Sequence record: MT129652.1
Reading direction: 5' to 3' (one strand)
DNA from: Escherichia phage MN01
Length of the DNA: 64,000 nt
Position numbers and translations under genes: made by a program
Notes under the pieces: model-generated
What the model saw: the letters and a program-made list of their open reading frames with translations, nothing else
What the model was told of the DNA's origin: nothing
Database searches by the model: none
Shown here: positions 1 through 46,219 of the stretch, in pieces
Layout of the letters: each line of letters starts with the position of its first letter
Numbering within the stretch: position 1 is the stretch's first letter

Positions 1-272
1 ATAACCATAACCAACCAGATCTTCTGGCCGCAGTAAAAGAAATCCATGAAGCCATTCGCCGTGCTGAGGAAATTGCAGACAAATATGAGACTCATTTTAA
101 TATATACCCTGCTCGCGGTATGGGCGGTGACTATTATTCTCCTGGCGCCTTGAAAGCTGACCTTGCTCATTGGGAAGAAGATGGTCATCCTGAATGGGCC
201 ATTGTTAATACTCATGACTACACAACCGACCTGGAAAATGGCGGTTGGGTGTCCTCTTCTTCTGAATGTTAA
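1..272 (+). CDS. Partial CDS (3-prime end); small protein ending GWVSSSSEC, first member of a tandem paralog family
   Basis: Open frame from window edge to TAA at 270-272; C-terminal W-x-SS-x-C motif shared with the next three ORFs; AAGGAA SD for next gene follows. Confidence 0.5.
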   Translation, partial: NHNQPDLLAAVKEIHEAIRRAEEIADKYETHFNIYPARGMGGDYYSPGALKADLAHWEEDGHPEWAIVNTHDYTTDLENGGWVSSSSEC

Positions 273-280
273 GGAATTAT

Positions 281-478
281 ATGTCTCGTGAATTAGATTG
301 TGCAATCCGTACTGCCGCAGCAGCTATTGAAAACGTTATCCAGATTTGCAAAGAAGAACGCGAAGAAGCTGATATCTATATCGATGGTGTTCGTGACCTA
401 GACCGACATATTACGCTTTATAATGGTTGTATTACTATTAGTGGTACCTCTTGGGTGTCCTCCTCTTACGAATGCTAA
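281..478 (+). CDS. Hypothetical small protein, W-x-SS-x-C C-terminal family
   Basis: ATG at 281 with AAGGAA 5 nt upstream; ends SWVSSSYEC; the C-terminus-plus-SD DNA block is repeated at 449-490 and 677-718. Confidence 0.55.
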   Translation: MSRELDCAIRTAAAAIENVIQICKEEREEADIYIDGVRDLDRHITLYNGCITISGTSWVSSSYEC

Positions 479-487
479 GGAAATAAA

Positions 488-706
488 ATGACTACTAAAA
501 CTGTTAAAGAAATCGAAGACCAAATCCGTGCACTAATCTGTGAAGGTCTGACTGCGGCGGATGAAACCGGCGAACACTTCCGCGCCGGTGGCGAAGAATA
601 TATTCCAGCTTCTAGCCCGGAATATGACGATTATGAATGGGTTCGTGATGAATATTGTATTCCAGAAGGTGAAGGTTTCTGGTTTAACTCCTCTATGTCT
701 TGCTAA
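488..706 (+). CDS. Hypothetical small acidic protein, W-x-SS-x-C C-terminal family
   Basis: ORF track 72 aa; ends FWFNSSMSC; SD AAGGAAA upstream. Confidence 0.55.
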   Translation: MTTKTVKEIEDQIRALICEGLTAADETGEHFRAGGEEYIPASSPEYDDYEWVRDEYCIPEGEGFWFNSSMSC

Positions 707-715
707 GGTGATAAA

Positions 716-949
716 ATGACTACTACTGTTGAACATGCTGAATTAGAAAAAGCTGCCCTTGAACTGGCCGCGCTGTATAAGAAAGTAAAAGATATGGCTT
801 TTGCTCAAGATTTCGGTGTCGAGCTTGATGATTATGACGGCGAAGTCCGTCTTGAAGACTGGTTGAACAGCTCTTGTTATGGTGAAGAAGCTGGGCGTAC
901 CTTCGTTGCTCGTGCCGATGGTAAAATCTGGTACCCAAGTTCATGTTAA
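716..949 (+). CDS. Hypothetical small protein, W-x-SS-x-C C-terminal family
   Basis: ORF track 77 aa; internal DWLNSSC and terminal IWYPSSC motifs. Confidence 0.55.
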   Translation: MTTTVEHAELEKAALELAALYKKVKDMAFAQDFGVELDDYDGEVRLEDWLNSSCYGEEAGRTFVARADGKIWYPSSC

Positions 950-26386: not shown

Positions 26387-26944
26387 ATGAACGAAATTAA
26401 ATTAACTAAGAATAACTATGTAAATAATAAAGAGCTTTTGAAAGCTATTTCGGAGTGGAAACAGAAGCTGAATGCGAACACCGACCCGAATAAAATTATT
26501 CGCCAGAACGATGTTATTGGTCTGGCAATTATGCTTATAGCCGAAGGTCTTAGCAAACGTTTCAACTTCTCCGGATATACCCAATCTTGGAAGCAAGAAA
26601 TGATTGCAGACGGAATTGAGGCCGCAATAAAAGGTCTTCACAACTTCGACGAAACAAAATACGATAATCCACATGCTTACATAACAATGGCTTGCTTCAA
26701 TGCTTTCGTTCAGCGTATCAAAAAAGAACGTAAAGAAATGGCAAAGAAATATAGCTACTTCGTCCATAACGTGTATGATTCACGTGACGACGATATGGTG
26801 GCTCTGGCTGATGAAACATTTATCCAGGACATCTATGACAAAATGACACAGTACGAATCCTCTTTAGTTAAAGCGCCAGGGTCTGATAAGAGCGCCAAAG
26901 ATAAAGAAGGTGATTTGGATTTTTTATATGGAACATCAATTTGA
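26387..26944 (+). CDS. 55: Late-transcription sigma factor gp55
   Basis: [16 protein letters not shown]...[40 protein letters not shown]... near-identical to T4 gp55; 185 aa. Confidence 0.93.
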
Positions 26945-43378: not shown

Positions 43379-43618
43379 ATGAATATCGCATTAATGAAAC
43401 CTACCCCTAGTTCTTTTTGGAATAAATCTTTTGGTAAGCATAATATGTTTATCCAACGCACCGTAAGCAGCTGGGAACTAGTTCTTTCAGTCGGCCACAA
43501 TGATTATGAACAAGAATACGTAGAGTTCTTCGATTTTCCTGTGAAACCTACCAAGCGTCAGATTCGTCAGACAAAACGCAAATTCCGCAAAATTTATCTG
43601 GAAGATGCATTAAAATAG
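43379..43618 (+). CDS. Hypothetical basic protein
   Basis: 79 aa ORF. Confidence 0.45.
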   Translation: MNIALMKPTPSSFWNKSFGKHNMFIQRTVSSWELVLSVGHNDYEQEYVEFFDFPVKPTKRQIRQTKRKFRKIYLEDALK

Positions 43619-43675
43619 TGTACAACAAAGGGATAATGCTGTATATTATCCCTATCAACTACTGAGGAGATTGAA

Positions 43676-43969
43676 ATGAAAAAGTTATTAATCGCGGCAA
43701 TTCTTACCGTAGCATCATGTGGTACAGCTCCAGTTACTGCTGGACTTGATAAAGACCTTTGTGAGTGGTCTATGACTGCCGACCAGACTGATGTTGAACA
43801 TCAGATTTATGCTGATATCATGAACATAACTAAACGTGACCGCCCTGATATGGTTAAAGAAGTATCTGACCAATTGACTTCTGGTGACGTTATGCAGTAT
43901 AACTATGTTCTGTATTGCGATGCTTCATTTGACAATAGCAAAATTGTTCAATGGGTTACAGGTGAATAA
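43676..43969 (+). CDS. sp: Spackle-like periplasmic protein (possible superinfection exclusion)
   Basis: 97 aa with signal peptide MKKLLIAAILTVASCGTAPVTA; same size and position (between 41 and 61) as T4 Spackle. Confidence 0.5.
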   Translation: MKKLLIAAILTVASCGTAPVTAGLDKDLCEWSMTADQTDVEHQIYADIMNITKRDRPDMVKEVSDQLTSGDVMQYNYVLYCDASFDNSKIVQWVTGE

Positions 43970-43970
43970 A

Positions 43971-44408
43971 ATGATTAACAGAAATTTAGTTATCAAAAAA
44001 CTTCGCTGTAAAAATCCAAATGCACAGGCATACCGGGTGTTTTGGAGCGATGAAATTCAATACCTGGGTTATTTTCTTGTTGATAGTGATGACAGAATTA
44101 CGTTTGCTCATAAGCTTCTTAACAAAGAATTAAACCATTGGCAAGAACTTATTGCAGTCAAGTCTAAATTATTTTCGCGCAATACAATGCACCAATTGGT
44201 TTATTTTTTCGCTGATGGTATTCCTGACAAGGTTGAATTTGATGGGTTTGAATTTAAAGACATCAACCCTGACAATGAATTGAATGACAGTATTGTTAAT
44301 ATGGGTATCCCAGGTAAGTACATTAAAAACAGTCTTTTGAAACTTCTGGAAACCCCTGTATATTCAGTAGACGACCAAATTTTTAATGCCTTTATGAAGC
44401 GAGATTAA
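43971..44408 (+). CDS. Hypothetical protein ending DDQIFNAFMKRD
   Basis: 145 aa; C-terminal 11 codons plus junction repeated at the end of the next gene. Confidence 0.5.
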   Translation: MINRNLVIKKLRCKNPNAQAYRVFWSDEIQYLGYFLVDSDDRITFAHKLLNKELNHWQELIAVKSKLFSRNTMHQLVYFFADGIPDKVEFDGFEFKDINPDNELNDSIVNMGIPGKYIKNSLLKLLETPVYSVDDQIFNAFMKRD

Positions 44409-44409
44409 T

Positions 44410-44778
44410 ATGTATATTCAAAGCGATTTATCTTATCTGAATTTTGAATTAGTTAAAAATAATGATGGTAATGCTCATTATGAATTCCGTGAACCCAGGT
44501 TTAATCAGGCGATTGGTTATATCATCGTTAAAGATGATGTTATCATAAAGGCTCGCTCATTTATGGTAATGAATGGGCCTTATGAAGATACTCGTGGCTA
44601 TCCATTTGATAAAAAGAATGTACGCGATTGTGCAGCATGGATAACCGGAAACCCTGAAATTGGGGTCATGTTATCTACTGAAGCAAATGACATTCTGGAT
44701 GCTGGCTGGGTTAAAGCTCAAGAACCGCCTACTGATATTGATGACCAGATTTTTAATGCTTTCATGAAGCGAGGTTAA
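44410..44778 (+). CDS. Hypothetical protein ending DDQIFNAFMKRG
   Basis: 122 aa; shares only the C-terminal block with the upstream gene. Confidence 0.5.
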   Translation: MYIQSDLSYLNFELVKNNDGNAHYEFREPRFNQAIGYIIVKDDVIIKARSFMVMNGPYEDTRGYPFDKKNVRDCAAWITGNPEIGVMLSTEANDILDAGWVKAQEPPTDIDDQIFNAFMKRG

Positions 44779-44779
44779 T

Positions 44780-44971
44780 ATGACTGCAATGTGTACGGGC
44801 TCTAAGATTTCGGTCTTCCAGATTTTTGAAGAATATGAAATCGTGTCGCAAGACCAAGAAGCAATCCATGTTATTGCTGATGATGGGGTTACCTGGATTA
44901 TTCCGTTGTATCATGAAGACACTTATGAAGTGACTGATGCAAATGGTGATAAAGCTATCTTCGTTGTATAA
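44780..44971 (+). CDS. Hypothetical small protein
   Basis: 63 aa ORF. Confidence 0.4.
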   Translation: MTAMCTGSKISVFQIFEEYEIVSQDQEAIHVIADDGVTWIIPLYHEDTYEVTDANGDKAIFVV

Positions 44972-44990: not shown

Positions 44991-45158
44991 ATGAAAACAT
45001 TCAAAGATTTTATCAACGAAGATATGGTTGCCGGTGATGCAGGCGGAAACCCAACTAATATCGCAACAGGTACCACTTCCGGGGCAGTTGTCAATAAAGG
45101 CCCTGAACAAATCCCATCAAAAAAGCGTAAGAACAAAGACGATAAACCTACAGTATAA
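44991..45158 (+). CDS. Hypothetical small protein with CTS-like N-terminus (MKTFKDFINED)
   Basis: 55 aa; N-terminus resembles the internal-protein capsid-targeting sequence; late promoter upstream; reading frame depends on the A-run at 45117-45124. Confidence 0.35.
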   Translation: MKTFKDFINEDMVAGDAGGNPTNIATGTTSGAVVNKGPEQIPSKKRKNKDDKPTV

Positions 45159-45190
45159 TGGTCCTTCGGGGCCATTGAAATGAGGAAACT

Positions 45191-46219
45191 ATGTCATATA
45201 TTGATAAAGAATTTGCAGTCAGAGCTTTATCGTATCAACCACGTTATAGAGAAGTCACCGGGAGCACATTTAAGGCAAACTGTCGTTGCAAGGTTTGCGG
45301 TGACTCTCAGAAAGATTCACACAAGGCCCGATTCTGGGCGTATACCAATCCGGCTGACGGTGCGGTTTACGTGAAATGTTTTAACTGTGACTACTCCACG
45401 CATATAAGCAAATACATAAAAGAGTTTGAGCCTGATTTACATCGGGAATATATGGTTGAGAAGTATAAGGAGAATGCCTTTGGCAGACAACGTAATGAAG
45501 TTGCAGAAACTCCGAAAGAACCAGAAAAAACTCCGGTTATTGAGCAACTTGCTTTTTGCGAAAGAATCGATACTTTACCAGAAGCGCATCCGATAGTTAA
45601 GTATGTAAAAAGTCGGTGTATTCCGAGCAATGTTTGGAACCGGTTATGGTTTACAAACAAATGGCCTGCATTAGTTAACTCCGTTAATCCTGGGACGTAT
45701 AAGAATGAAACGAATGAACCACGCTTGGTTATTCCTATCTTCAACGGCAAAAAAGAAATCGAATCTTTCCAAGGACGAGCTCTTCGCAAAGATGCACCAC
45801 AAAAATATATCACAATCAAAGCCCACCCAGAAGCTTCCAAAGTCTATGGTGTAGACAAGATTGACGAACGCAAGCGCGTGTGGGTAATGGAAGGTCCGAT
45901 TGATAGTTTGTTTATCCCTAACAGCATTGCGATAACCGGTGGAACATTAGCATTGGAAGCCGTTCCTTATGCAGAAACCCGAGTATGGGTAATGGACAAC
46001 GAGCCAAGACATCCTGATACGATTAAACGTATGAAGAAACTTGTTGAAGCCGGTGAAGCCGTTATGTTCTGGGACAATGCACCATGGCATACGAAAGACA
46101 TAAATGAGATGGTTAAATCAGAGGGTGCAACCCCTGAACAAATCGAATCATATATGGCCGATAACGTTACTCAAGGGCTGCTGGCGAGAATGCGACTTTC
46201 GAAGTACGCAAAAGTTTAG
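45191..46219 (+). CDS. 61: DNA primase gp61
   Basis: N-terminal zinc-binding CRCKVCGDS...CFNC, TOPRIM-like core; 342 aa as in T4. Confidence 0.9.
   Translation: MSYIDKEFAVRALSYQPRYREVTGSTFKANCRCKVCGDSQKDSHKARFWAYTNPADGAVYVKCFNCDYSTHISKYIKEFEPDLHREYMVEKYKENAFGRQRNEVAETPKEPEKTPVIEQLAFCERIDTLPEAHPIVKYVKSRCIPSNVWNRLWFTNKWPALVNSVNPGTYKNETNEPRLVIPIFNGKKEIESFQGRALRKDAPQKYITIKAHPEASKVYGVDKIDERKRVWVMEGPIDSLFIPNSIAITGGTLALEAVPYAETRVWVMDNEPRHPDTIKRMKKLVEAGEAVMFWDNAPWHTKDINEMVKSEGATPEQIESYMADNVTQGLLARMRLSKYAKV

Follow-up and report, generated by a model that had tools for sequence, protein, structure and literature searches.

The window analysed here, a 64,000-nucleotide stretch of Escherichia phage MN01 (MT129652.1), carries, in its gene 41-to-61 region, the series dmd - 61.4 - sp - "61.2 slot" - 61.1 - 61 of a T4-like Gaprivervirus (SP18/VR20-like). 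The interval from 43.3 to 45.3 kb matches 85 phage genomes, the top match being Gaprivervirus ECML-359 at 98% identity. The annotated order in the relatives DK-13, SP18, VR20 and VR7 is dmd, a 61.4-like gene, sp, a 145-aa gene and a 117-122-aa gene that the records label "similar to T4 gp61.2"; another 61.4-like gene usually comes next, and the series closes with a 63-aa gene, 61.1 and the gene for primase gp61. The corresponding order in T4 is dmd, 61.4, sp, 61.2, 61.1, 61. Three of the genes of the window are called A, B and C in what follows (Table 1).

Table 1. Genes, repeat copies and C-terminal tails between the 61.4-like gene and the primase gene (window coordinates)
Feature	Position	Strand	Evidence or remark
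61.4-like gene, 79 aa, DUF7279, upstream of sp	43379..43618	+	Pfam DUF7279 E 1.1e-19; phrog_2375
sp, orthologue of Spackle, 97 aa with signal peptide (mature from ~residue 23)	43676..43969	+	Pfam, PHROG, PDB
Gene A, 145 aa, narrow family of Gaprivervirus and Dhakavirus	43971..44408	+	phrog_8539 E 2.5e-93
Tail of A, SVDDQIFNAFMKRD	44364..44405	+	sequence, relatives
Copy 1 of the direct repeat: final 12 codons of A with stop and following ATG	44370..44412	.	reference copy
Gene B, 122 aa, RB32ORF033c type, single-module AdfA homologue	44410..44778	+	phrog_4122 E 1.1e-50
Tail of B, DIDDQIFNAFMKRG, short predicted helix past a flexible linker	44734..44775	+	AF2 model
Copy 2 of the direct repeat: final 12 codons of B with stop and following ATG	44740..44782	.	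88% identical to copy 1
TAATATG stop/start junction	44776..44782	+	extra-gene site in relatives
Gene C, 63 aa, RB69 ORF033c type, downstream neighbour	44780..44971	+	phrog_3249
61.1 homologue, 55 aa	44991..45158	+	phrog_1823 E 1e-32; annotations in relatives
gp61 DNA primase, context anchor	45191..46219	+	primase annotation in all relatives

The sp gene encodes a genuine and ordinary Spackle orthologue. Spackle acts in superinfection exclusion, as an inhibitor of the tail lysozyme gp5. The product matched the Pfam family T4_Spackle (PF25676) over residues 1-96/96 (E 1.7e-43, 147.6 bits against a cutoff of 27), phrog_1586 "spackle periplasmic" (3.4e-43) and PDB entry 6x6o, "Protein spackle" (E 3.5e-38), and it aligns with T4 Sp without gaps at 66% identity. 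Residues 23-97 match the mature PDB chain 7cn6, and the signal peptide, MKKLLIAAILTVASCGTAPVTA, lies N-terminal to them; as in T4, the gene has the 61.4-like DUF7279 gene on its upstream side and the 61.2 slot downstream. T4 Spackle (Sp, gene 61.3; PDB 6x6o, 6xc0, 7cn6) has the same length, signal peptide and synteny, with no notable difference, which bears out the preliminary description of this product as Spackle-like.

Two structured elements were observed in the flanking intergenic sequence. A 10-bp stem-loop (43629-43653, in the GGGATAATGC...GCATTATCCC region) occupies part of the 57-nt gap between the 61.4-like gene and sp; it overlaps promoter-like hexamers (43619-43647), has a fold z score of -1.5, and is the only feature nearby that resembles the PeSL shuffling cassettes discussed below. 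A stable UUCG-tetraloop hairpin, AUGGUCCUUCGGGGCCAU, lies at 45156-45173, between 61.1 and gene 61.

The repeat and the shared C-terminal tail

The preliminary description had noted that the two genes downstream of sp share the ending DDQIFNAFMKR(D/G) together with a repeated block of DNA, and both were recovered here. Gene A ends ...YSVDDQIFNAFMKRD and gene B ...TDIDDQIFNAFMKRG, with the shared ending reading DDQIFNAFMKRD in A and DDQIFNAFMKRG in B. The DNA repeat is 43 nt long and includes the TAATATG that forms the stop codon and the next ATG; its two copies differ by four synonymous codon changes and one amino-acid change, in the last codon (D/G), and their longest exact runs are 11-12 nt. 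The back-translated tail motif occurs twice in the window and not at all in 100 shuffles. Both tails recur in all the Gaprivervirus relatives that were fetched, which disposes of the idea that the repeat is an artefact or absent from relatives.

The tail can be described by the consensus S-[IV]-D-D-Q-I-F-N-A-F-M-[KN]-R-[GD], 12-14 residues in length and carried by both A and B (in peptide form, SIDDQIFNAFMNRG). T4 gp61.2 likewise ends in VSIDDQIFNAFMNRG, followed by the TAATATG of 61.1. The tail places hydrophobic residues at positions i, i+1, i+4 and i+5, the pattern of an amphipathic helix, and the linker that separates it from the body varies widely in length across the family. The AF2 model of B (pLDDT 79.6) predicts a helix at residues 110-120, with the linker and tail at pLDDT 50-56 and the core at about 90. 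This anatomy is compatible with a tethered docking helix, as is the low pLDDT of the modelled tail, although such a score is no proof of a docking motif.

Relationship of genes A and B to AdfA

The product of T4 gene 61.2 is AdfA, a small protein without assignment to any known family; it binds the ADP-ribosyltransferase DarT1 and thereby blocks it (PMC11257639). Few phage counter-measures to DarTG are known besides AdfA, and its mechanism is only partly understood. Residue 164 decides DarT1 binding, and both T4 AdfA and RB69 AdfA(R164H) bind and neutralise the toxin (PMC11257639). A T4 delta-adfA phage has no DarTG1 phenotype (PMC11257639), and the biological role of even this founding member is therefore provisional. 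T2 is said to be without adfA (PMC11257639), and it carries, in the slot after sp, a 118-aa protein with the AdfA tail.

A BLASTP comparison of A with B returned an 18-residue C-terminal stretch as its sole match, and the database models of AdfA reach B by the same route: phrog_3781 and Pfam AdfA (PF23813) match B at its extreme C-terminus only. The window B scored 20.5 bits against Pfam AdfA, below the cutoff of 27 and with only the tail matched, and the window A did not match that model at all. In this they differ from the T2-type B protein, which is 45-47% identical to gene B and whose residues 22-118 align to profile positions 113-211 with 32.5 bits against the same cutoff. A search of homologues with the B sequence alone returned close relatives only, and an alignment query was needed for AdfA. 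A profile of the B family then matched 210-aa AdfA proteins in 5.8e9 sequences (E 2e-5, 27% identity over 96% of B), and a broader B profile matched an AdfA representative in two stretches (E 4.4e-8). To judge from these searches, the AdfA/B family is small and confined to T4-like phages, because only seven proteins matched in 1.84e9 representatives.

The relationship extends beyond the tail. With the tail trimmed, each half of AdfA was matched by B (P 4e-4 and 8e-4), and its N-terminal half matched its C-terminal half (P 1.4e-4), these tail-trimmed profile P-values being modest (1e-3 to 1e-4) and drawn from shallow alignments (Neff 1.3-4) after several tries. Since B matches both halves and the halves match each other, AdfA looks like a two-module internal duplication and B like one such module. 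The profile alignments show the B body to be homologous to AdfA, as a single module that corresponds to its C-terminal half. AdfA is about 210 aa long with two putative modules, whereas B (122 aa) has one, as A (145 aa) probably does, and the two stand in tandem; all share the slot after sp and an identical tail. Residue 164 of AdfA is part of the helix NINHIAS. In the alignment this helix corresponds to helix 68-79 of B, with Asp73 opposite residue 164, and the specificity position that is H or R in AdfA is accordingly D in B.

The evidence that places gene A is weaker. Its own AF2 model (pLDDT 45.9) was too poor for fold searching. When the B model was searched with Foldseek against viral models, the second-ranked match was the 145-aa A homologue of VR25 (E 3.9e-5, TM 0.60) and the fourth an AdfA-sized protein of 212 aa (E 7.4e-4); and hhalign aligned tail-trimmed A with a merged module profile in colinear fashion (A16-99 with B19-96, 78-91 columns, P 7.7e-4). 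The link of A to the family consists of that one Foldseek match, partly aided by the identical tail, and that one hhalign result. The order of elements in A is that of B, a beta-meander with the hairpin GYFLVDSDDRI, then helix, strand, helix and tail, and A stands where AdfA stands in the sp-AdfA-B arrays of Tequatroviruses. We regard it as likely that A belongs to the AdfA-type module family.

It might instead be supposed that A, and possibly other members, arose when a body unrelated to AdfA became fused in frame to the 3' end of a resident 61.2-type gene. This would account for the observation that BLAST, Pfam and PHROG all link A to B and AdfA through the tail only, for the weak scores of tail-trimmed A against B alone (P 0.03) and against AdfA (P 0.06-0.14), and for the narrow and young-looking family of A, which was found in 85 phage records with all sequences at least 74% identical. 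Such a capture is nevertheless unlikely, for it does not predict the colinear match to the merged module profile, a Foldseek TM score that extends over the whole B model, or the shared element order and array position. A and B are best read as diverged AdfA-family paralogues, not as unrelated genes with a common junction. The "otherwise dissimilar" proteins of the preliminary description are therefore dissimilar at the level of BLAST, but profile and fold comparisons link their bodies.

Several record labels and marginal matches were encountered in the course of these searches. In PQ341120.1 (L027, 884-1691) the label "serine/threonine protein kinase" is attached to the A homologue and "DUF2528 domain-containing protein" to the B homologue, and the record of Yersinia phage P8 labels the neighbouring genes "DNA polymerase", "exonuclease" and "major capsid"; neither set of labels is supported by Pfam or NCBIfam, and an NCBIfam scan of A, B, AdfA, T2 B and the two divergent members described below (P0014 and P0022) gave zero matches. 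Six short stretches of a 968-aa protein, P0061, aligned to positions 52-82 of the B profile (E 6e-5), a match that is probably repetitive or compositional. In the 141-kb record PQ671644.1 (phage DCP80; L030, 2234-2906), B is followed by modA in place of C, 61.1 and 61, and the A homologue has two places; the layout reflects either a rearrangement or an assembly problem.

Gene exchange after sp and selection on the tail peptide

Comparison with related phages, which the preliminary description had proposed as a search for alternative genes between the repeats, revealed slots that differ by whole genes. After sp, T4 has AdfA only and T2 has B only; other Tequatroviruses, namely the phage of L022, R5505 and EC.W5-4 (the latter two by coordinates), have AdfA and B in tandem; Gaprivervirus has A and B; VR26 and the JS98/JS10/VR5 group have A and no B; and L031 and L033 have one divergent module each. 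A tail-bearing gene always lies directly after sp, and the genes for the divergent modules, P0022 in L031 and P0014 in L033, directly follow a T4_Spackle gene and are themselves followed by homologues of gene C. The contig with P0022 also carries an HNH endonuclease gene between gene 41 and dmd (L031, 371-991).

The ends of these differences fall at the tail or at the junction that follows it. In VR26, A is followed directly by the 61.4-like gene, and the identity between T4 and T2 starts exactly at the Ser-Ile codons of the tail, 6 nt before GATGAC, and continues at 97.5% over the next 400 nt. VR20, DK-13, SP18 and VR7 have, between B and C, an extra 73-aa 61.4-like (DUF7279-type) gene, ...PTKRQIRKLKKAH..., which is missing from the window, ECML-359, pEC-M719-6WT.2, EAWsc9 and Yersinia phage P8; the difference (window against VR20; L003, 1880-2075) amounts to 196 nt, with its endpoints in AATATG microhomology. 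The indel endpoints of neighbouring genes thus coincide with the repeated tail or with the stop/start junction, which shows that gene gain, loss and swapping in the slot end there and that the exchange is real.

These observations are also what one would expect if a block of about 40 bp were kept as a recombination site at the DNA level, the peptide being incidental, a reading in line with the preliminary description, which called the block a repeated gene-junction cassette. The block is exactly where indels and allele swaps end, the window lacks the extra 61.4-like gene between AATATG repeats, and the A and B tails are identical in their DNA in VR20, DK-13 and P479. Known cassettes of this kind, the PeSLs of T4-type phages, are intergenic shuffling elements that combine a strong sigma-70-like promoter with a terminator stem-loop (2010, PMC2839356; PMC4122927), and the block resembles them in that a short repeated sequence marks gene borders within a plastic region and indels the size of a gene end at it. 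It differs from them, however, in being coding, unstructured and conserved at the amino-acid level only. The RNA at the two junctions folds with -3.2 and -12.8 kcal/mol (z +2.1 and +0.15) and is unstructured; no promoter is common to both repeat copies, the sole promoter-like match lying before copy 1 alone (44337-44364). A PeSL-like element at the junctions was rejected on these grounds.

The pattern of codon changes also argues against conservation of the DNA. Between family members the codon differences in the tail are almost all synonymous and the reading frame is always kept. Since a codon table compiled from motif-selected loci is circular with respect to amino-acid conservation, the evidence used here comes from two non-circular comparisons. 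P0022 and P0014 were found by a full-length profile and not by the motif; their bodies are 27% and 45% identical to B, and both keep DDQIFNAFMNRG. In alignment A2, in which the bodies fall to 27% identity, 11 of the 12 tail columns are invariant. The tail of L033 differs from that of an RB69-like AdfA in 9 of 12 codons, every change being synonymous, and L033 has a different junction, with a separate intergenic SD and no TAATATG. Because the tail codon changes are almost all synonymous, these comparisons show that selection acts on the tail peptide and not on the DNA.

Nor do the two tails of one genome resemble each other unusually. The mean distance between A and B tails was 1.88 within genomes and 1.70 between genomes (permutation p = 0.90), a result that lends no support to gene conversion between them. 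Free third codon positions beside fixed amino acids, the L033 junction, exact runs of only 11-12 nt and the lack of a PeSL-type stem-loop or shared promoter together leave a DNA-level cassette largely refuted as the primary cause of the repeat, and we consider that explanation improbable. The modular exchange by junction homology proposed in the preliminary description stands insofar as whole-gene differences are bounded at the tail; we read the exchange as following from the conserved tail, not as explaining it, because the tail is the only homologous patch between the paralogues and between phages.

A further alternative would place the constraint in the RNA, with the AU-rich, unstructured 3' end, its GAGG and the TAATATG serving as the ribosome-binding region of the next gene. 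In its favour, GAGG stands 6 nt ahead of the next ATG, neither junction RNA is structured, and the T4 delta-adfA allele published as "61.2 delta 65-196" retains the final 12 codons (PMC11257639). An initiation element would, however, explain at most the last two or three codons, and the A version reads GAGAT; L033 has its separate SD, the genes downstream of the tail differ (B, 61.4-like, C or 61.1), and variation confined to synonymous sites is unexpected for an RNA element. We consider this explanation highly improbable. The 43-nt repeat would instead combine the coding sequence of the tail with the usual T4-type SD/stop/start junction (GAGGTTAATATG). Taken together, the results make it probable that sp is followed by two tandem AdfA paralogues and that the repeat is the coding sequence of their invariant tail.

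A possible role for the invariant tail

In the arrangement that we propose, each paralogue would have a single globular module of about 100 residues that evolves fast, joined by a flexible linker of variable length to an invariant C-terminal amphipathic helix. By analogy with the binding of DarT1 by AdfA, A and B may be early anti-defence proteins in which the variable body binds a variable host toxin, while the constant tail would dock on something that does not vary, either a hub protein of the phage or host or a conserved groove of the target toxin. The tail could also be the landing point at which recombination resolves, since it is the sole stretch alike between paralogues and between phages, and bodies would thereby be gained, lost and replaced in the manner of cassettes. 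A protein motif under strong selection can in this way mimic a recombination cassette in a plastic phage region, and secondarily act as one.

Tethered C-terminal docking peptides are found in the sliding-clamp-binding tails of gp43, gp55 and gp33 of T4 and RB69 and in the neutralising tails of type II antitoxins. The tail described here shares with them a folded body, a flexible linker and a short terminal hydrophobic helix, docking being putative in the present case. More speculatively, the tail may be a portable functional peptide that either docks on a constant hub or plugs a conserved groove of the toxin, and it may define a wider AdfA superfamily; we put this forward only tentatively. One candidate hub would be the sliding clamp of the phage at the replication fork, the site at which single-stranded DNA comes under attack by DarT-type toxins. 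Such a superfamily of anti-defence proteins with a variable head and a constant tail would include the T2-type, Gaprivervirus and Dhakavirus genes, which have hitherto gone uncounted as adfA, and new heads would be tried by recombination ahead of an unchanged tail.

Spackle and AdfA were already known; the tandem single-module relatives, the likely duplication within AdfA and the invariant tethered tail appear not to have been described before. AdfA looks like a duplicated module, its sole unvarying part is a tethered helix of 12-14 residues, and phages described as adfA-negative, such as T2, together with the genera Gaprivervirus and Dhakavirus, carry shorter relatives in its slot. The invariant tail offers a concrete handle for finding a binding partner.

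Some further C-termini in the window and in T4 may be recorded here. The gp43 of this phage (35428-38142) ends in KKASLFDMFDF, which we take to be a clamp-binding peptide of the RB69 type; its LFDMF resembles the IFNAF of the tail, a likeness over five residues that could be due to chance. The C-terminus of gp55 (26387-26944) was noted beside the gp43 ending, and a text search of the papers covered here for the clamp-binding peptide SLFDMFDF returned nothing. Near the start of the window (120-949) lie four small tandem ORFs of 50-77 aa with similar C-termini (GGWVSSSSEC, TSWVSSSYEC, GFWFNSSMSC and GKIWYPSSC); they are probably what the preliminary description called a junction cassette at the start of the window, and they resemble a further array of tandem paralogues in which the C-terminus is conserved. 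In T4 (L005, 3133-3759, minus strand), the 61.2 deletion allele mentioned above (PMC11257639) would leave residues 197-208, which, assuming the numbering of the 208-aa annotation, are DDQIFNAFMNRG, exactly the tail and in frame.
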